Shown here piece by piece: positions 2,691 through 44,182 of a DNA stretch of 58,078 nt. Made by a program: the position numbers and the translations under genes. Origin of the DNA: Candidatus Saccharimonadota bacterium (GTDB taxonomy: Bacteria; Patescibacteriota; Saccharimonadia; Saccharimonadales; UBA10212); assembly GCA_016187125.1 (NCBI GenBank), contig JACPKF010000006.1:1-58078 (forward strand), written 5' to 3'. Each line of letters starts with the position of its first letter. The stretch's first letter is position 1. Under the pieces are notes generated by a model. The model saw only the letters and a program-made list of their open reading frames with translations, did no database searches and was not told the DNA's origin.

Positions 2691-5270
2691 TTACTTACTT
2701 TTAGGCTTCGCGGAGGGTTTTTTGGATTTGGCTGGTGCTTTAACGGAAAGTTTTTTAGGTAAGGCTTTAGGTTTGGGTGCTGGCTTTTCTTCTTCCTCTT
2801 CAACTTTTTCGACCAAGGCTAGAGAGGCGACGCTGTCGCCGGCGTTGAGACGCATAATCCGGACCCCTTGGGTGGCCCGGCCCAGTGCTGGAATGTTTTT
2901 TAGCCCTAAACGGATAGTCTGGCCGGCTGTTGAGATGATAATCACTTCTTGGTCGCTGCCAGTTAGTGTTTTGACGCCAATTAAGGGACCGGTTTTTTTA
3001 TTAACCACGGCCGAACGAATTCCTACGCCACCACGCTTATGGGCCGTAAATTGGCTTACCTTAGTTCGCTTACCATAGCCAAATTCGCTAATCACAAATA
3101 TATAAGACTCCGGTTCGACAATGTCCATACCGATTACTTGATCGCCGCTTCGTAGCCGTATGCCACGGACCCCCCGTGAAACGCGGCCCATCGGCCGAGC
3201 ATCTTTTTCACTAAAGCGGATGGCTTGGCCCTGGCTAGTAGAAATAACGACTTCGTCCTCGCCGCTGGTCATTCGGATCCATTTCAATTCATCACCTTCG
3301 TCAAGATTAATGGCTATAAGACCGGAAGTACGGACGTTTTGGTATTGTTCAAATGGCGTTTTCTTAACTACTCCACGGACAGTACACATCAGCAGGTTGC
3401 CACTAGCGTTTTGTTTGCTGACATTAATGACTGAACTAACGATTTCTTCAGGCTGCAATTGCAATAAATTAACTATAGCAACGCCTTTGGCGTTCAGTCC
3501 GACGGCTGGCACTTCGTAAGTTTTGATGCGGAACACTCGGCCTTTGTTTGTGAAGAAAAGTAGATAGTCATGTGTTGAAGCATTTACAACATGTTCAATG
3601 ACATCCTCTTCACGGGTAGCCATTCCCCTTCGGCCTTTACCGCCTCGGCCTTGTTTCTTATAGTCAGCTATGGCTGTGCGTTTTATGTAATTAGCTGATG
3701 TAAGTGTTACTACGACCTGTTCATCGGGAACAAGGTCTTCATCACTCAATCTGCCAAGTTCCTGAGCAACTATTTTAGTGCGTCGCGCATCACCAAATTG
3801 TTGCTTCATTTCCAAAAGTTCGTTTTTAATAATTTTTAAAATCTGCTTCTCATCTGCCAAAACAGCCTTCAGCTTGGCGATTAGCTTTATGAGATTGGTT
3901 AGTTCGTCTTCGATTTCCTGGCGTTGCAGCCCTGTTAGACGGCGTAGCTGCATGGCCAAGATAGCTTGGGCCTGGATAGAGCTTAGTTTAAATTGTTTTA
4001 TGAGGTTGGCTTCAGCCTCTTCGGGCGTTTGGCTAGCTCGGATGGTTTTTATAACTTCGTCAATCCGGTCTAGAGCGATTTTCAAGCCCTCTAGAATGTG
4101 AGCTCGCTCCTGGGCTTTCTTAAGCTCAAACTCGGTACGATGGCGAACTACTACCTGTCGGTGTTTAATGTGCTCCTGGACGATGTCCTGAAGGCCTAGA
4201 ACACGGGGTTGGATACCATCAATAAGAGCCAGCATGTTGTAGTGGATAGCCGTTTGAAGAGGGGTTAATTTATAAAGTTGATTGAGCAATTTTTTGGGGT
4301 AAGCATCTTTTTTTAGATCAACTACAATGCGTACATTGCCTCTGGAACTCTCATCACGCAGATCCGATATGCCACTGACTTTTTTCTCCCGAACTAAATC
4401 AGCAATTTTTTCGACCAGACCGGCTTTGTTAACGGCGTATGGAATTTCGGTGATGATAATTTTATGCCGCCCGCCTTTAGCTTCTTCGATGCTGGCAACG
4501 CCTCTTACCATTACCCCTCCGCGGCCAGTGGCGAAAGCCGTGCGGATGGATTCTTTACCATAAACCACAGCGCCGGTGGGAAAATCCGGCCCTTTGACGT
4601 AATTCATTAGCTCATCGAGAGTGGCATCGGGATTATCAATTTGGGCAACTGTGGCATCGACTAACTCCGATAGATTGTGCGGCGGGATGTTGGTAGCCAT
4701 ACCAACGGCAATTCCTAGCTGGCCGTTAAGTAACAGGTTGGGTAGTTTGGCCGGTAGAACCTCCGGCTCTTGGAAGGTACCGTCGAAATTATCCCGAAAC
4801 GGTACGGTTTCTTTATCTATGTCTTCCAGTAGCGACTCACTGGCTCTAGTCATTCGGGCTTCGGTATAACGATAAGCTGCCGGCGGGTCGCCGTCCATGC
4901 TGCCAAAGTTCCCTTGCCCGTCAACTAGCGGATAGCGGGTTGAGAACGGCTGAGCCAGACGTACCATAGCGTCATAAATAGCTGTGTCGCCGTGGGGGTG
5001 GTACTTGCCCATCACCTCACCCACAATCTGGGCGCTCTTAGTGTGCTTGGCGCCACTACGCAGATTATTTTTGTCCATGACGTACAAAATGCGTCTGTGA
5101 ACCGGTTTTAAGCCGTCGCGGACATCTGGTAGCGCCCGAGCCACAATTACGCTCATGGAGTACTGCAGGTAGCTGGTCTCCATTTCTTCCTCAACCGAGC
5201 GGCCTAAAACTGTCTTGGAATGCTTGTCGGCGGTTGGAATCAAATCCTTAGAGTACTTATCAACCATCAT
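2691..5270 (-). CDS. gyrA: DNA gyrase subunit A with a Lys/Pro-rich C-terminal tail
   Basis: N-terminal [30 protein letters not shown], the active-site region [10 protein letters not shown], and C-terminal beta-pinwheel repeats. Confidence 0.98.
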
Positions 5271-12820: not shown

Positions 12821-13618
12821 TTATTTGCGTACTGTAAATAAACTAAATTCCAGCGTTTCTGAAAACTTGGTGCCGTGTGACAAATTTTGTAGTTTTTCAC
12901 GGAGCTCATTTTCAAAATCTCTGGTATTTTCACCAAGCTGCTTTTTGGATGCGAATGACGTGGAAAATAACTGACCAATTATTTGATCTGCGGTCCTATC
13001 AAATTTGGTTTTGTAATAATGTGTTCTGAAATCACGGAATTTAGAATTTTGTAAATACTCCTCGAAGCTCTTTTCAGGATGCGTATAAATAAATTTCCCA
13101 GCCCGTCTATCTTCTCCCAGATATTTCTTAATAACTCCTTGAACAATTTTATCTTTTTCAGATGCCTCAGGGTCGCAACTAAGGGGTTTAGCGCCGCCAA
13201 TTATCACAACACCACCGCCTGTTTCAACGAGCGTATACAACTGACTGAGCACTACTTCCTGATCCATCCAGTGGAAAGATCCTCCAATTACAACTAGCCT
13301 AAATGGGTCCTTTAGCTTATCTAACTCCTTGGATGAGCCTTTTTGCCAAATAATATTATTGATTTTGGACTTTTTAATCTTCTTTTGGCCTTCTCGGAGC
13401 ATGCCTTCATCCGGATCTATAGCTAAAACAGAGGTGAAATACTTAGCCAGGGGTATAGTAAGTTCGCCGGTGCCACAGCCTAGATCAAGCAATCGGCCTT
13501 TTCCGTCCAATTTAAAGGTCTGAATAATTTCGGCAAGTAGCGTTTTAGGGTAGCGCGAACGATATTTGGCGTAGTATTTTGCCGTACCTTCAAAAACGTC
13601 GTCACCAAAATCGCGCAT
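12821..13618 (-). CDS. Class I SAM-dependent methyltransferase
   Basis: Motif I is LLDLGCGTGELT, followed by a typical Rossmann-fold layout. Confidence 0.85.
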   Translation of the reverse strand: MRDFGDDVFEGTAKYYAKYRSRYPKTLLAEIIQTFKLDGKGRLLDLGCGTGELTIPLAKYFTSVLAIDPDEGMLREGQKKIKKSKINNIIWQKGSSKELDKLKDPFRLVVIGGSFHWMDQEVVLSQLYTLVETGGGVVIIGGAKPLSCDPEASEKDKIVQGVIKKYLGEDRRAGKFIYTHPEKSFEEYLQNSKFRDFRTHYYKTKFDRTADQIIGQLFSTSFASKKQLGENTRDFENELREKLQNLSHGTKFSETLEFSLFTVRK

Positions 13619-13799: not shown

Positions 13800-14119
13800 G
13801 CACTTGAATAAAAAAAGTGCTCAAAACAAAAACACTAAATAGAACAACGGCTTCTCGCAAGCCGTTGTTCTATCCAAAAGTAATAAAACAAAGAATCGTT
13901 CGCCAACCTCCAAACCCAGCACCTAGCTTCGAGCGCTTCGCAAAAAATTATCCGTCCAAGCGGATAATCTCGGAGCTAGGTGCTGGGCAAACACCCAACC
14001 CAGTAGTAGACTTTCGCGACTATCCGCAAGGCGGATACTGGCAAAGCCACGCAAAAGCTCACTACTGGGCCAACCAAACATTACAAAATGGCCCGCAAAA
14101 CTCGGGCCATTTTGTTTTA
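13800..14119 (+). ncRNA. Candidate ~320-nt structured RNA ending in an intrinsic terminator
   Basis: Three long hairpins lie at 13840-13872, 13915-13987 and 13999-14069. The terminator is ATGGCCCG-loop-CGGGCCAT plus TTTGTTTT (14085-14119). Confidence 0.4.
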
Positions 14120-14172: not shown

Positions 14173-15693
14173 ATGGCAAAGTCCTCAAAAAGTATTGTTA
14201 ACCGTGGTGGAACAGATGGACTAGTGGTTAACGTCGAATGCCATATCAGCAAAGGTCTGCCATCAATTATCATAATCGGTTACGCCAGTAGGGCAGTTGA
14301 CGAATCTAAAGATCGGCTTAGGGCTAGCTTTGCTAATTCCAACCTAGAGCTACCCAAAAAACGAATTACTATTAATCTGTCGCCGGCCGATATACCAAAA
14401 GATTCGACTAGCCTAGATTTATCTATGGCGGTTGCCATATTGGCTGCCAGTCAGCAGATAAAAGAAGAATCTCTAAAAAGCTGGCTGTTTTTAGGCGAGG
14501 TTGGCCTGGACGGAAGATTGCATCCGGTTCGTGGTCTGATTGGCAGAATTCTATCAGCTAAAAAAATAGGTTTCACAAGTTTTTATATCCCAAGCGCGAA
14601 TTTAGAACAGGCATTACTAATACCAGATATTAGTCTTAAACCGGTGCTTTCACTGCGGGATGTATACCTAGACCTTGCTGGTCTACTGCCTATCAAGTTG
14701 GTAAAAACCGGACAAGGTAAACAGGCCAGCCAAGTAAAGTCTGCCGAATTTTTAGATTTCTCGGAAATTGCCGGTCAAATTATTGCCAAACGAGCTTTAG
14801 AAATTGCCGCTGCTGGACACCACAATATCTTGCTTCACGGCCCGCCTGGCACCGGTAAAACCATGTTAGCTCGAGCCATGTGTGGCATTTTGCCCAAGCT
14901 CGATAGAAGCGAAGTTTTAGAAGTCACTCACTTGCATAGCTTAGCCGGCAATGATTCAGAGGCTATAATCACAACTAGGCCTTTTCGGACTCCTCACCAT
15001 ACAGCCAGCACTATCGCCATTATTGGCGGCGGAACTTATCCCAAGCCCGGCGAAGCAAGTCTGGCGCATAGGGGCGTGCTATTTCTTGACGAGCTGCCCG
15101 AGTTTAGCCGCCATTGCTTGGAATCACTGCGACAACCACTCGAGGATGGAACTGTAACGATTGCCCGCGTTAAAGACTCTGTAACTTACCCGGCTGACTT
15201 TATACTAGTCGCAACTCAAAACCCTTGCCCTTGCGGTTACTGGGGCACTTCCAAGCCCTGTATCTGCACGGCGGCGGACATTGCCCGCTACCAGAAGAAA
15301 GTTTCGGGACCTATACTGGATAGGATCGACTTACACTTACCTGTACACGATGTTGATTATGAGCGCCTGTTAGAAAACCGCAGAGGTCCGAGTGAAACAG
15401 ATCTTATCAAACCGCGAGTAGCCTTAGCCTACGTGACTCAGAAACAACGTTTTGGCAAGGCCCGCTTTAATAGTTCAATGACCAACCGCGAAATTCGGGA
15501 GCTGGCTAGCTTCTCCAGCGAGGCCAAAAGTCTGTTAGATAGTGCAGCCAGCAAGCTCGGTATTTCCGCTAGAGCTTATGTAAGAACTGTCAAAGTCGCT
15601 CGCACTGTTGCTGATTTAGCCCAGCAAGAGTCGATCAAACCTGAACACATCGCTGAAGCATTACAGTACCGCCAACCACTCCAGCCATTATAA
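14173..15693 (+). CDS. comM: YifB/ComM family Mg-chelatase-like ATPase
   Basis: It has an N-terminal Lon-protease-like domain, Walker A GPPGTGKTMLA, Walker B VLFLDELPEF and a CPCG zinc-like motif. Confidence 0.93.
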   Translation: MAKSSKSIVNRGGTDGLVVNVECHISKGLPSIIIIGYASRAVDESKDRLRASFANSNLELPKKRITINLSPADIPKDSTSLDLSMAVAILAASQQIKEESLKSWLFLGEVGLDGRLHPVRGLIGRILSAKKIGFTSFYIPSANLEQALLIPDISLKPVLSLRDVYLDLAGLLPIKLVKTGQGKQASQVKSAEFLDFSEIAGQIIAKRALEIAAAGHHNILLHGPPGTGKTMLARAMCGILPKLDRSEVLEVTHLHSLAGNDSEAIITTRPFRTPHHTASTIAIIGGGTYPKPGEASLAHRGVLFLDELPEFSRHCLESLRQPLEDGTVTIARVKDSVTYPADFILVATQNPCPCGYWGTSKPCICTAADIARYQKKVSGPILDRIDLHLPVHDVDYERLLENRRGPSETDLIKPRVALAYVTQKQRFGKARFNSSMTNREIRELASFSSEAKSLLDSAASKLGISARAYVRTVKVARTVADLAQQESIKPEHIAEALQYRQPLQPL

Positions 15694-22425: not shown

Positions 22426-22715
22426 CTAGAACCCATTTCAATACCTCCTTCGGAGTTCGAGAGACTCAATTCCAGGTTAAAGATGACTGATTTCTTGCGA
22501 CAAGCTGTACCCATTGGTACATCGCGAAGTGAAGCACCGCCAATAGGAGTTGGCGGCTTCCCAGATTACGGTGCGAAACCCCGCACCGAAGGCCAATGCA
22601 CCAACTATCATCCACCGACAGGAGTCGGTGGCCTTCTGGTGCGTGGGGCAAAAATCAGTTAGATTGCCTGGAATCTGGTTCGCAGAAGGAAGGTAGGTTT
22701 TGAAATGGGTTCTAG
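22426..22715. mobile_element. 290-bp TAGAACCCA-terminated inverted-repeat element (MITE-like or structured RNA), copy A
   Basis: The termini are CTAGAACCCATTTCA and TGAAATGGGTTCTAG, with the imperfect inverted repeat extending to ~25 bp. The interior is dense in GC hairpins. Confidence 0.6.
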
Positions 22716-23407
22716 CCGGATTTAAGTACAATCAGGCGTGCCGTGTCGGTAAATTCAGCCGCTTTGGGCTTATATTTATCTAGGGTCTCGCTGGGCTCCA
22801 TGGCCAGAGCCTTAAGAGCCTCAGCTAACTCAGCTTGGGGCACTTGGTACTTAATAGCTACACCTGCGTAGTGAGTTGGAATAATGACTTTAGGCTCAAG
22901 CTTCTTGATTATCTGCAGAGCCCCTGCTCCGTCTAATGTATAGCCATTGCCGCCAACCGGCACTACGGCTATATCCACCAGCCCAATTTGTTCCAGTTGG
23001 TCGTCGCTAAGCTCGGGATAAATATGGCCTAAAATCGCCACTTTCAAATCATCGGCCGAGATCGTATAGATAACGGCGTTATGGGCATCCGGCTCATCCA
23101 TCCCGTTAGAAGTCCGATTCGCTGAGCGCGAATCGGCAGATTTCTGCGAAGTCTTACTTCTAACGGGATCCATATGAGACCGGGCAGCAATGCCGTGAAT
23201 AGCCACGCCGGAAATTTCGTATTCGCCGGGCATATCGGCTTTAAAGCGAGCTTCGTGATCCGGGATGCCGGCGTGGGTGTTGAGGCTTATATCAGTTGGC
23301 TTGGTTATGGTTTTTAAACCAAGCTCTGCCAAATTGTCGTCAATAACGATAGCGGCTTTTTTGGTAGTTATACGCAGACAATTGGCACCGTAGTACTGCA
23401 GTTCCAT
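22712..23407 (-). CDS. MBL-fold metallo-hydrolase (UPF0173-like) with a 24-aa palindromic-element insertion
   Basis: It has a beta-lactamase-fold layout ending ...VIIPTHYAG. The stop TAG lies inside the terminus of element A. Confidence 0.75.
   Translation of the reverse strand: MELQYYGANCLRITTKKAAIVIDDNLAELGLKTITKPTDISLNTHAGIPDHEARFKADMPGEYEISGVAIHGIAARSHMDPVRSKTSQKSADSRSANRTSNGMDEPDAHNAVIYTISADDLKVAILGHIYPELSDDQLEQIGLVDIAVVPVGGNGYTLDGAGALQIIKKLEPKVIIPTHYAGVAIKYQVPQAELAEALKALAMEPSETLDKYKPKAAEFTDTARLIVLKSG
23096..23173. mobile_element. CCCGTTAGA palindromic element, copy 1, in frame within a CDS
   Basis: ATCCAT-CCCGTTAGAAGT...ACTTCTAACGGG-ATCCAT. The arms are 12 bp and there are two internal hairpins. 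The element plus one direct repeat is 72 nt. Confidence 0.7.
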
Positions 23408-29651: not shown

Positions 29652-29762
29652 CCCGTTAGATCTCACTTAACTTTCTAATATATTAGTTAATGCCTGAAAA
29701 GCGCTCACGTGTTCAATCGTGCAACTATTTACGGTCGTCTTCTGAGATCTAACGGGATCCAT
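29646..29762. mobile_element. CCCGTTAGA palindromic element, copy 2, inserted directly behind the thrS start codon
   Basis: ATCCAT-CCCGTTAGATCTCA, then 77 nt, then TGAGATCTAACGGG-ATCCAT. The arms are a perfect 14 bp. Confidence 0.75.
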
Positions 29763-38926: not shown

Positions 38927-38929
38927 TAC

Positions 38930-39096
38930 TAGAACCCATCTCATAATAATTTTGGATAGCAAAAAACGAATATTCTTTGAGCGACAAGCCTGAAGCGCGA
39001 GGAAGTGTAATCATAGTTACATTGACGAGTGATAAAGGTTCTGCAGCCAAATAAGGCCGTTTTTCGGCCCAAAACTTTATTATGAGATGGGTTCTA
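38930..39096. mobile_element. 167-bp TAGAACCCA-terminated inverted-repeat element, copy B
   Basis: The termini are TAGAACCCATCTCATAATAA and TTATTATGAGATGGGTTCTA. It shares the internal motifs GCGACAAGC and GGTTC(T)GCAG with copy A. Confidence 0.6.
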
Positions 39097-39417
39097 AACA
39101 AAAGCTGGTTTTCGGGTACCGAGTAAGGCCTTGCTGCCGAGCTGCTTGGTGACTTGGCGCCGCTCACGAGCTTTCTCAATTTTCCCAATTACATAGCTTT
39201 GAAGTATATCTATCGCTGCCAACCCAAGAAGAATTGGCTGCTCAAAAACAATTCCAGCGGCAGCAAGTACGGCTGCGCTGACTTGGTTAAATCTCTTCCA
39301 GGCATTTAAAAAACCGCCCTTTTTCTCCATGCCCGGTTGTAATTCGTGACTCCTACTCATACTTATATTATAAACCTCACATTTAATCTTAATGCATCCT
39401 TCATAACTCACGATCAA
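39094..39417 (-). CDS. Hypothetical membrane protein
   Basis: ORF only. Its stop TAG lies inside the terminus of element B. Confidence 0.4.
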   Translation of the reverse strand: MIVSYEGCIKIKCEVYNISMSRSHELQPGMEKKGGFLNAWKRFNQVSAAVLAAAGIVFEQPILLGLAAIDILQSYVIGKIEKARERRQVTKQLGSKALLGTRKPAFV

Positions 39418-40362: not shown

Positions 40363-41481
40363 TTAAAAGCGGACGTAGGTCTTGGATGGTTCTTTAGCCT
40401 GCAAGTCTTTAATGTAGAACGAGATGTCTTTTAGATTGAAAGAAATATGCTGAGCCGTGACAGTTGTGCCGTCGCTCCCGATAACTTTAACAATTTCTAG
40501 GGTGTCGGGCTTATTAATATCCACCCGGCTGGCTAAAATTATGCCCGAAACTTGGCCGGCTTTGAGTTTAAACAGCTCATTAATAACCTCTGGGGACACA
40601 TTGGGATTAGTTTTGGTGATGCCAAAACCCCAGTCGCCGTTACTGGCCTTACTGGGATCGTCGGAGTTTTGGGCGGCCAGGCTGCCAAAATCAGCCCCAG
40701 CATTAGACTGGGCTAAAACCGATTGGGCTTTAGCCTGTGCGCCGACGTCGAGTTTGGCTACCACTCTCTCAGCCAGCATTTGGTCCTTTAGACTGCGTCT
40801 AAAATCGGCGATCGACCAACCCCAATAATCCCGCAGCACATCAGCAAACACTTTATTGTTGCTACCCAGGCGGTTTTGCTGACGGACTTCATTTATCCGA
40901 GCGTCGACTTCGCGGTCCGAGACTTTAACACCGTTTTTCTTGGCCAGGGTTTTTACATAGCCGTTATTGATCACGTTTTGCAGAGCCTGCTTCCTAAACT
41001 GATTTATTTGCTGCTGGCCGCCAAACAAGCGCTGTTGTTGAGTTTGGTAATAATGAATATAGTGTCGCAGTTCAAACAAATAATTCTCGTAATTCACGTA
41101 TGCATCGCCGGCACGGGCTATGGGAAACGGAATAACTTGGGTAACCCGGTAAAGGAAAGTGTTGTACTGGTAAAACTTATAAAGCGCTAAGCCGCAGTAA
41201 ACCAAAAAAGTTATTATGGTAACGGCTGCGATACCACTGCTAATAACCAAAATGCGGTGCTTAGAATGGGCCAGCGGATAAATATATTTACGGGCTCCAG
41301 ACAGCACCTCTTCCCTGTGCTCGGTAATAGTTTCACTGGTAATATGCGGAACATCCTTAAGAGATATCGGCTCTGGTGGCCGGGGCAACGGACTAAAACT
41401 GGCGGCCTTTTCGGTTACCACGTCCGGCAATAGTTTTTTGACCTTTTTAACTCTTTTTTTGAAATGCTTTCTCAGTTTCAT
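40363..41481 (-). CDS. Membrane-anchored SurA/PrsA-like parvulin peptidyl-prolyl isomerase
   Basis: It has a TM anchor, a SurA_N-like region and a parvulin segment ...FGSLAAQNSDDPSKASNGDWGF... Confidence 0.75.
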   Translation of the reverse strand: MKLRKHFKKRVKKVKKLLPDVVTEKAASFSPLPRPPEPISLKDVPHITSETITEHREEVLSGARKYIYPLAHSKHRILVISSGIAAVTIITFLVYCGLALYKFYQYNTFLYRVTQVIPFPIARAGDAYVNYENYLFELRHYIHYYQTQQQRLFGGQQQINQFRKQALQNVINNGYVKTLAKKNGVKVSDREVDARINEVRQQNRLGSNNKVFADVLRDYWGWSIADFRRSLKDQMLAERVVAKLDVGAQAKAQSVLAQSNAGADFGSLAAQNSDDPSKASNGDWGFGITKTNPNVSPEVINELFKLKAGQVSGIILASRVDINKPDTLEIVKVIGSDGTTVTAQHISFNLKDISFYIKDLQAKEPSKTYVRF

Positions 41482-42098
41482 AGCTCTTCGTCGTCTTGAT
41501 CATGGTCTTTTTCAGTACCGGGCCGCATAGTATGATGAATTCCCAAATCTCTCAAAATGTGCACCATTTTTTTCTGGACTTTTTCTGGGTGGTGCACTTC
41601 GTTAATCACCAAATCTCCCACGTAAGTTTGTACGACTATTGTACCAAAACCCAGCATCGTCTGTTCTAGTCCGGCGATTTGATAATTAATCATTTGTATC
41701 TGTTCTAGGCCAATATCCACTACATTTACCTGGAGCAAGCTGCGGGTTTGTTGAATAAAACGCTTGTCGGTCATTATATAAACGCTGAAGTACCAGCGGA
41801 CCCACCAGGGGAATAATATGAGTACAAACAGTAAGAAACCGCCAACTAGCCCGCCAAAAAAAACACCGTACTGTGGTTTTATAAGCGCTGGAGTCATAGC
41901 CAAAAGCAGACCAGCCGATGCAAATATTATTCCCCGGCGCATAACAATCGGGTGTTTTCTAAACACCAGCATTGTCTCTTCGTCTTCAAACTGCTCTTTA
42001 AAATATTTGGGCTTACCCGGTAGTGAGTCCGCCTCGGTGGGTCTACTACCGGGCCTCTTGACTTCAACTTCATTCTCTTTGGCTGGCTTTTCGCTCAT
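41478..42098 (-). CDS. Bacterial PH-domain (YdbS/YdbT-like) membrane protein
   Basis: Two TM segments are followed by the bPH_2-like YIMTDKRFIQQTRSLL...GFGTIVVQT. The start is placed at ATGAGCGAA (42098). Confidence 0.7.
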   Translation of the reverse strand: MSEKPAKENEVEVKRPGSRPTEADSLPGKPKYFKEQFEDEETMLVFRKHPIVMRRGIIFASAGLLLAMTPALIKPQYGVFFGGLVGGFLLFVLILFPWWVRWYFSVYIMTDKRFIQQTRSLLQVNVVDIGLEQIQMINYQIAGLEQTMLGFGTIVVQTYVGDLVINEVHHPEKVQKKMVHILRDLGIHHTMRPGTEKDHDQDDEEL

Positions 42099-42294
42099 CC
42101 CGTTAGAACCCACTTACCTTCCGTAGTTTGGTTAACGATTGAACGCGGGCGCTTGCCCAGTAGTGAGCTTTCGAGATTATTCGCCTTCGGTGAATATTCA
42201 TCTGTTCTTGCAGATGGACTCGAAAGTCTACTACTGGGCTTGCTTCAACGTAAAAATAAATATTGTAGGTCTTTTGGGTTCTAACGGGACTCAT
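42094..42294. mobile_element. CCCGTTAGA palindromic element, copy 3, inserted directly behind a start codon
   Basis: CTCAT-CCCGTTAGAACCCA, then 162 nt, then TGGGTTCTAACGGG-ACTCAT. The arms are 14 bp. Confidence 0.7.
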
Positions 42295-42393
42295 GGCTAC
42301 ATTATATCCGGCCTTCGTAGCCAAAGCTACTTTGGCGGAGTAGGCTAGGTTAGAGGTTGTAGGTTACAGGTTGCGGACTTAAAATACATGTAC

Positions 42394-43261: not shown

Positions 43262-44182
43262 ATGAGCTATGAAGACGCTGTCGCCCAGTTCTTAGAATAT
43301 CAAGAGCTAGAACAAAACCGCTCAAGCAAAACCATTGAAAATTACAGCCATTACTTAACTCGCCTTAGCGACTTTGCCGGTGATATTAAGCTCAAAGATA
43401 TTGACGTCGAGCTAATCAGGAAATGGCGGTTGTGGCTTAATCGCTTGGGCACCAACACCTCTGATGAGCTGTCTAAGGTGACTCAAAACTACCATCTTAT
43501 TGCTCTGCGCAGTTTTTTGCGTTTTTGCGCCAAGAGAGGGATAACCGCCCTTGCCCCAGATAAGATAGAGCTGGCTCGAACCACTCGCCCCCAAGTGACC
43601 TTTTTAACTTCTGAAGAGCTCGAAAGATTGACTGCCCAGCCTAATGTTGCGACTCTGAATGGGCTGAGGGACCGGGCTATTATTGAACTGTTGTTTTCCA
43701 GTGGGCTGCGAGTCAGCGAGTTAGTAAGCCTCGACAAAGATCACATCAATCTTCGGCGCCGGGAGTTTATGGTCCGCGGCAAGGGCCAAAAAGACCGGCC
43801 AATTTTTATCAGCGCTGAGGCAGCTGACTGGATCCAAAGATATTTGGACAAGCGTCAAGATAATACAAAACCGTTATTTATCAGATACAGTGGCAGTAAA
43901 AAGGTCGATTTATCCGGTAATTACCATCGCCTGACGGCCCGCAGTGTCCAGCGTATGATTGCCCGCTACGGCTTGGCCGCCGGCATCACTAAACACGTAT
44001 CCCCCCATACTTTAAGACATTCGTTTGCAACCGATTTATTGATGAACGGAGCTGATTTGCGCTCAGTTCAAGCCATGCTGGGCCATAGCAACATCGCCAC
44101 TACTCAAATCTACACTCATGTAACTGATCCACATCTCAAAAAAGTTCACGAGCAGTTCCATCGAGCGGCCAAAAGAAGTTAA
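43262..44182 (+). CDS. xerC: Tyrosine recombinase, XerC/XerD family
   Basis: It has an N-terminal SAM-like domain, plus GLRVSELV, HTLRHSFAT and LGHSNIATTQIYTHV. Confidence 0.9.
   Translation: MSYEDAVAQFLEYQELEQNRSSKTIENYSHYLTRLSDFAGDIKLKDIDVELIRKWRLWLNRLGTNTSDELSKVTQNYHLIALRSFLRFCAKRGITALAPDKIELARTTRPQVTFLTSEELERLTAQPNVATLNGLRDRAIIELLFSSGLRVSELVSLDKDHINLRRREFMVRGKGQKDRPIFISAEAADWIQRYLDKRQDNTKPLFIRYSGSKKVDLSGNYHRLTARSVQRMIARYGLAAGITKHVSPHTLRHSFATDLLMNGADLRSVQAMLGHSNIATTQIYTHVTDPHLKKVHEQFHRAAKRS

Follow-up and report, generated by a model that had tools for sequence, protein, structure and literature searches.

A MITE-like element at the start codons of Saccharimonadales genes and its possible tolerance through termination-reinitiation

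Introduction

How could a gene still be translated once a long hairpin-forming sequence has entered its own start codon? The question is raised by a gene for a PH-domain protein in the DNA analysed here (the window, meaning the whole stretch of 58,078 nt from contig JACPKF010000006.1 of a Candidatus Saccharimonadota bacterium), which has one ATG next to a -10 box and another at the head of the intact reading frame, with an element bounded by inverted repeats between the two. The original prediction, made from the letters of the sequence, was that a discrete element had been inserted behind the start codon of a putatively leaderless gene and had duplicated its target, that the distal ATG opens a 63-codon ORF, and that the element is related to two others at 22426 and 38930. 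As we describe below, the discrete insertion, the target duplication, the fit to a leaderless mRNA and the 63-codon ORF have all stood, but the relationship to the other two elements has not.

Results

Structure of the insertion at the bPH_2 gene

The minus strand runs from TATAAT (42306..42301) through gtagcc (42300..42295), ATGAG (42294..42290) and a T to CCCGTTAGAACCCA (42288..42275); 162 nt further on comes TGGGTTCTAACGGG (42112..42099), followed by ATGAGC GAAAAG (from 42098), which is written ATGAGCGAAAAG. This reading confirms base by base the predicted layout of TATAAT box, 6-nt spacing, ATGAG repeats, arms and 162-nt gap. The features are as follows.

42301..42306, minus strand: TATAAT, the -10 box of bPH_2; 6 nt separate it from the distal (original) ATG, which lies downstream
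42290..42294, minus strand: distal ATGAG, containing the original start codon; the upstream ORF begins here, as does, presumably, a leaderless mRNA
42099..42288, minus strand: E3, a CCCGTTAGA-family element of 190 nt, delimited by its inverted repeat, its fold and its alignment to canonical copies
42275-42288 and 42099-42112, minus strand: the E3 arms, a perfect inverted repeat of 14-15 nt
42111..42113, minus strand: in-frame GTG in the 3' arm of E3, 15 nt before the proximal ATG, used as the start by gene callers (MGSNGM..., 211 aa)
42094..42098, minus strand: proximal ATGAG, the duplicated copy and putative working start codon of the bPH_2 gene, 4 nt past the stop of the upstream ORF
41478..42098, minus strand: bPH_2 (bacterial PH domain) gene, 206 aa, intact, with 65-70% identity to its orthologues over the full length

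The length of E3 becomes 192 nt if the terminal T/A (42289, 42098) is counted, and its region folds with -83.9 kcal/mol (z = -7.75 against shuffled sequence). The window has six occurrences of the motif CCCGTTAGA where 0.35 would be expected, arranged as three inverted pairs, named E1, E2 and E3. The PH-domain call for the downstream protein was matched by the Pfam comparison, which found a bPH_2 domain in it. An exact-protein look-up gave no match on record for the 206-aa protein, and found the 211-aa GTG form on record from a single 2-kb contig (L001), starting inside the element.

Judged by the relatives of its bPH_2 protein, the window belongs to Candidatus Saccharimonadales. The orthologous bPH_2 site carries no element in three relatives (L002, L003 and L007). 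It reads gtagccATGAGCG in L002 (in a longer reading, tatataatgtagccATGAGCGCC), actagcATGAGCG in L007 (longer, gttacaatactagcATGAGCGCC) and cctataatatagccATGAACAAA in L003, and deleting the element together with one ATGAG from the window restores the layout of these relatives. E3 is therefore an insertion and ATGAG its target-site duplication, so that the ATGAG(T/C) repeat noted at its flanks is a true duplication, present as a single copy at the three empty sites; the same sites bear out that a discrete element sits behind the start codon, and show that it is not a conserved leader. Furthermore, the arrangement TA(T/C)AAT-N6-ATG aligned in the window and in the three relatives, with the 6-nt spacing fixed in four of four genomes and with no SD sequence, as expected if the box lies at the proper distance for a leaderless mRNA. 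A two-hexamer promoter scan found no -35 partner for this -10 box and no promoter-like site. Because the element-free relatives read TA(T/C)AAT-N6-ATG, the bPH_2 gene is plausibly leaderless.

E3 is longer than most members of its family. When it was compared with canonical copies of about 103 nt (L065, L029, L026 and L003b), it aligned from end to end except for one extra block of 87 nt, which begins after GAAGCAAGC, and the nhmmer profile of the family matched it in both halves. This part of E3 contains a second element.

42157..42237, minus strand: nested hairpin element of a second family, 81 nt, CCAGTAGTAGACTTTCGAG...CTCGAAAGCTCACTACTGG with two variable hairpins between

The direct repeat GCAAGC stands on either side of the nested element (42238-42243 and 42151-42156), whose insertion adds 87 nt, that is 29 stop-free codons, which keeps the frame of E3 open. 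Judging from this alignment, E3 is best described as a canonical element of about 103 nt that holds a nested 81-nt hairpin element of the second family. E3 would have entered the ATG of the leaderless bPH_2 gene first, and the nested element would have arrived later.

A family of MITE-like elements

Metagenome contigs scanned with a 3'-end pattern that contains no ATG returned 84 stretches, when only a handful would be expected by chance, and an arms-only search (at most one mismatch per arm, 55-200 nt between the arms) gave 69 distinct copies of the family. Copies measure 63-190 nt, with 103 nt (36 copies) and 104 nt (18 copies) dominating, and small subfamilies of 63-66 and 76-77 nt have only the ends in common with the main family. 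The other two copies in the window are these.

29652..29756, minus strand: E2, a canonical 105-nt copy at the start codon of a ThrRS-like gene, ggagtgaattATGGAT...ATGGATGAG
23102..23167, minus strand: E1, a copy of the 66-nt subfamily, whose terminal repeats are the same; it lies within a Lactamase_B_3 gene (22712..23407), at an internal ATGGAT

The start orthologous to that of E2 is empty in L002. E1 adds 72 nt in frame and without a stop, giving a 24-residue insert, DPVRSKTSQKSADSRSANRTSNGM.

The terminal inverted repeats of the family have 10 invariant bp, TCCCGTTAGA...TCTAACGGGA, which consist of the invariant CCCGTTAGA/TCTAACGGG plus T/A and are extended by five covarying positions. In the CCCGTTAGA family only CCCGTTAGA is invariant, and the ACCCA that follows it is one covarying variant among others (CTCCA, CCTCA, ACTCA); at arm positions 11-13 the covariation amounts to 27, 27 and 21 double changes. 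All 69 copies of the arms-only set are flanked by ATG(A/G/C)(A/G) on the gene-sense side. Among the duplications, ATGAA accounts for 32, ATGAG for 21, ATGGA for 12, ATGCA for 3 and ATGCG for 1, and in 57 of the 69 copies the two flanks agree over 5-6 nt. The base 3' of the distal repeat is T in every copy (69/69), whatever the orientation, and this fits symmetric ends TCCCGTTAGA...TCTAACGGGA with a 4-bp duplication TGRR that is preceded by A and reads as ATGRR. About 70% of the copies lie one way relative to the gene and about 30% are inverted, their mean column identity is 67% and their interior has no consensus structure.

These copies have the structure of MITEs, that is, no transposase gene, terminal inverted repeats, a variable target duplication and presence/absence polymorphism. 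No autonomous partner with the same ends was found in 759 kb of loci, where no CCCGTTAGA pair lies 125-3000 nt apart except the L003 neighbours described below, and viral contigs gave no family match. With Rfam 15, the window as a whole had no match that reached the gathering score, and E3 and E2 had none even at E <= 10; a search of the literature found no description of the family or of its arm sequences. The family is apparently undescribed, widespread, MITE-like and non-autonomous.

Several copies deserve separate mention. The search for diverged relics at non-start sites with the nhmmer profile returned only a weak partial match in L023 and a 5'-truncated copy (L057 3317-3387, profile positions 33-103), which has lost the distal start and the left arm in front of an intact gene; the orthologue of this gene in L033 has a full copy. 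L003 has a tandem pair of CCCGTTAGA-family elements (3534-3716; one of the 66-nt type and one of the E3 type) between the bPH_2 stop and a SurA-like start, two codons that in the window simply overlap as ATGA; pairing is perfect between the two outer arms of these elements, and likewise between the two inner ones. In L015 (5430-5533, the same as L016) the flanks are inverted rather than direct, GCTCAT...ATGAGC, which suggests an inversion that may have arisen by recombination between two oppositely oriented copies. The only young pair that we found is in L080 (6044-6146 and 7887-7989), with interiors 95% identical, 1.8 kb apart and with different flanks; one copy is at a 530-codon gene, and the other precedes an ORF of 30 codons overlapping the start of lepA.

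Association with start codons

In almost every copy, an ORF of 100 codons or more starts at the proximal ATG, preceded by no more than a short open stretch. The exceptions are ORFs of 86, 99 and 30 codons, and the last lies 90 nt upstream of lepA. By comparison, 22% of the control ATGRR sites in the same DNA (n = 4513) open an ORF of at least 100 codons and 9% resemble gene starts. The family is found, then, almost only at the first codon of genes and in either orientation. Moreover, about 510 ATGRR sites in the same loci lie outside any long ORF, so that tolerance alone would predict many intergenic copies, contrary to what is observed, as we saw no family copy at these sites.

Many pairs of orthologous starts are empty in one genome and filled in another. 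A gene start can also be filled independently, as the L021 copy is inverted relative to those of L037 and L080, and one and the same start has a 63-nt type in L052 and a 102-nt type in L063. The occupied genes include both leaderless-like and SD-led starts.

The reading frame through the element

In E3, the frame of the distal ATG crosses the whole element.

42103..42294, minus strand: upstream ORF, 63 codons, from the distal ATG through the whole of E3 to a TAA (42105..42103) in the 3' arm

This TAA lies 4 nt before the proximal ATG and in a different frame from bPH_2 (the offset in E3 is 196 nt, frame +1), so the 63-codon ORF described in the original prediction was found as it had been drawn. 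It is the only ORF in E3 and has no Pfam match. The same frame is open throughout the family: none of the 47 sense copies and none of the 20 inverted copies has an internal stop in it, whereas the other two frames have 2.3-3.0 stops each, and in the arms-only set 68 of the 69 copies are open in this frame on the strand that is sense in situ, against 31 of 69 for the equivalent frame of the opposite strand, although the copies are related by descent and these counts are not fully independent. As openness is tied to the strand that is sense in situ, the constraint tracks the direction of translation and not descent.

In every copy this ORF ends at -18, -14, -7 or +1, counted from the proximal ATG. 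These ends correspond to the TAA of TCTAACGGG at -7, the TGA of ATGA at +1 and the TAA of TAAGTG at -18, and position -14 is used in two copies. The distal start is kept as ATG, GTG or TTG in 65 of 67 copies. Variability within the ORF is equal at the three codon positions, with no codon periodicity, which indicates that the avoidance of stops is selected and the sequence of the peptide is not; a selected peptide can be ruled out on these grounds. A sense frame without stops that ends at the proximal ATG, together with the retention of the distal start, argues that ribosomes have to pass through the whole element, beginning at the original start, and in our view this pattern, seen so far in sequences, would be the signature of termination-reinitiation coupling.

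Discussion

We consider it probable that this MITE-like element, presumably moved by a transposase, is tolerated at start codons because its upstream ORF would be translated and ribosomes would then reinitiate at the gene. According to this, transcription would begin, as before the insertion, at the original (distal) ATG, and ribosomes starting there would translate the ORF that spans the element, melting the hairpin in passing. They would be released at a stop that belongs to the 3' arm or to the target (the TAA at -7, the TGA of ATGA at +1 or the TAA at -18) and reinitiate at the duplicated ATG, which in the case of the -7 stop lies 4 nt downstream, so that expression of the gene would be kept. 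For E3 this would mean a 63-codon upstream ORF from a 5'-terminal AUG, a UAA stop, CGGG and then AUG. It is known that termination-reinitiation takes place when a stop lies within a few nt of the next start (ATGA, TAAnnnnATG) and that it does not require an SD sequence (PMC12548453). The difference from ordinary pairs of this kind is that the upstream "gene" would be here the product of a mobile insertion, with no selected peptide. Two observations do not fit easily: a 14-bp G+C-rich stem begins 7 nt past the 5'-terminal AUG and should hinder initiation, which speaks against coupling, and the covariation of arm positions 11-13 would not be needed by an ordinary DDE transposase, which speaks against movement by such an enzyme.

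More tentatively, the family may do more than favour ATGRR and persist where it does no harm: it could actively recognise translation starts, for example by way of the open promoter or of the initiation region, or by pairing with AUGAG/AUGAA in the manner of an initiator tRNA, or else it could be a recruited mobile translational control module. We regard this as a possibility with perhaps some merit but still rather doubtful. If true, this would be the first transposable element to home on start codons, and its read-through design would work whichever way it is inserted.

It is unlikely that the element simply carries initiation signals of its own (an SD-like tract, the GTG/TTG at -15, an outward promoter) and that the upstream ORF is incidental. 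The tract GGAG or GAGG is present at -13..-10 in 36 of the 69 copies (also 36/69 for GGAG, GAGG or AGGA 9-10 nt before the proximal ATG), but E3 has only GGG there and no 4-nt SD core in its TGGGT arm, and pairing in the terminal stem hides the SD-like tract. An in-frame start at -15, GTG in sense copies and TTG in inverted copies, is used by the gene callers, and in L057 just the 3' half of a copy remains before an intact gene, as such an explanation would have it. However, it accounts neither for 68 of the 69 copies being open in the distal frame, a property confined to the sense strand, nor for the retention of the distal start codon, and the scan found no promoter-like site. The SD-like tract and the in-frame GTG/TTG at -15 might serve as additional routes of translation.

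We think it less probable still that the copies are kept as regulators, the hairpin and the upstream ORF together forming a mobile translational control that depends, for example, on temperature, RNase or ribosome load. Compensatory changes have kept the arms paired (the 27, 27 and 21 double changes), the copies are old and diverged (67% mean column identity) and none is seen at a non-start ATGRR despite the roughly 510 such sites outside long ORFs in the same loci, all of which speaks for regulation; yet about 30% of them are inverted, so that the RNA of their interior is completely different, the host genes are unrelated housekeeping genes whose orthologues are often empty, and no Rfam match even at E <= 10 and no consensus structure of the interior were found. 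That the insertion damaged expression, leaving the bPH_2 gene silenced or decaying, seems to us very improbable, as the 206-codon ORF is intact and retains 65-70% identity to its orthologues and dozens of genes of the essential type, such as that for ThrRS, show the same arrangement, even though a strong hairpin right after a leaderless AUG and a real start that is no longer 5'-terminal could well be harmful. Finally, a conserved cis-regulatory leader, a known RNA family, an intron or a translational-bypass gap can practically be dismissed in spite of the strong predicted structure and the matching codons that flank the element, because the empty sites in relatives rule out a conserved leader or riboswitch, the same 63-190-nt elements, with no intron core and no Rfam match, occur at unrelated genes, and an intron or bypass gap could sit at any position in a gene without harm, with no need for an open frame ending at the proximal ATG.

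With tolerance through termination-reinitiation as the preferred explanation, the closest known system is that of the MIRUs (mycobacterial interspersed repetitive units), described as apparently mobile repeats that insert at start codons and have an internal ORF translationally coupled to the gene (2025 review PMC12548453, citing Supply et al. 1997). In both cases the start codon is occupied by a repeat whose internal ORF ends against the gene start, and for the present family the coupling is putative. MIRUs are direct or tandem repeats of 46-101 bp in which no terminal inverted repeats or hairpin are known; they are oriented with the operon, are not known outside mycobacteria and are coupled by a -4 (ATGA) overlap. 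The present family, in contrast, has a hairpin, terminal inverted repeats and a 4-5-bp duplication, is found as single copies in both orientations in a Saccharimonadales host, and has a frame that is open on whichever strand is sense and ends at -18, -14, -7 or +1. MIRUs are the only precedent that we have found for insertion at start codons with a coupled ORF, and this second, structurally unrelated example beside them suggests, from the comparison of both, that such an arrangement could be a convergent solution.

The elements also resemble the bacterial MITEs (Correia/NEMIS of Neisseria, ERIC, RUP, MITEAba12) in being short and non-coding with inverted ends, a target duplication and many copies, in their polymorphic occupancy and in being co-transcribed as mRNA hairpins. 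Those MITEs are mostly intergenic, duplicate TA or a longer target of no particular sequence, and exert their effects by means of promoters, terminators or RNase III sites; none of these families is known to be specific to start codons or to keep a read-through frame. The Rickettsia palindromic elements (RPE) likewise survive within reading frames by staying open, as E1 does, and become part of the host protein at internal positions, with no known preference for start codons; E3, in contrast, is out of frame and ends at a TAA, and only E1 is in frame. As regards the enzyme, IS1380 and piggyBac-like transposons have ends beginning with CC and a 4-5-bp target duplication, like the present family, but we know of no ATGRR target or covarying arms among them. 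Palindromic elements derived from IS200/IS605 (PATE) are not known to make a target duplication and insert in one orientation 3' of a fixed tetra- or pentanucleotide, so the variable target duplication and the two orientations rule out an origin of this type. We also considered an integron attC site, whose core motifs are GTTRRRY/RYYYAAC; the arm GTTAGAC/GTCTAAC fits these motifs, but in the reverse order, and target duplications are present, so this was rejected as well.

These data show how a selfish element can colonise the most gene-dense genomes known by hitting the start codon and regenerating it through target duplication, and the stop-free frame would deliver ribosomes to the regenerated start. 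The family would thus provide a naturally repeated experiment on termination-reinitiation and leaderless translation in Patescibacteria (candidate phyla radiation, CPR). There is also a practical consequence: as gene callers start at the GTG within the element (MGSNGM...) and assemblers break contigs there, the N-termini and the contiguity of metagenome-assembled Saccharibacteria genomes are systematically affected.

Other repeated elements in the window

Two more elements, those that had been linked to E3, are bounded by inverted repeats and end in CTAG.

22426-22715 and 38927-39096: the two CTAG-ended elements, bounded by CTAGAACCCAT(T/C)TCA inverted repeats

The link is unsupported, as these elements have only TAGAACCCA in common with E3 (at 22427/22706 and 38930/39088). 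They lack CCCGT, their flanks fit a TA duplication and they lie at stop codons and not at starts; in fact, the TAG of the arm is the stop codon of the Lactamase_B_3 gene and of the ORF 39094..39417, respectively. The element at 22426-22715 has 290 nt and a very strong multi-hairpin fold (z = -9.6). No copy of either was found in 94 related loci, and neither has an Rfam match.

A gene for an XerC/D-like tyrosine recombinase lies 1 kb from E3 (window 43262-44182; Phage_integrase, E = 8.8e-46), and no link between it and the elements was found.

The second hairpin family, to which the element nested in E3 belongs, has the plan CCNGTAGTAGACTTTCGAG, two variable hairpins and CTCGAAAGCTCACTACNGG, with short flanking direct repeats, and gave no Rfam match. 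Its homologues are found at 13999-14069 of the window and in five metagenome loci (L014, L016, L044, L053 and L082), and its settings include intergenic positions, the interior of E3 and the coding region of the bPH_2 gene, where there is a mini copy.

42016..42053, minus strand: mini copy of the second hairpin family, 38 nt, CCCGGTAGTAGAC...CTCACTACCGGG, within the N-terminal coding region of the bPH_2 gene

The intergenic copy is part of a string of strong hairpins (13839-13873, 13915-13987 and 13999-14069), followed by a terminator-like hairpin, that occupies positions 13839-14115 between the ORFs 12821..13618 and 14173..15693.
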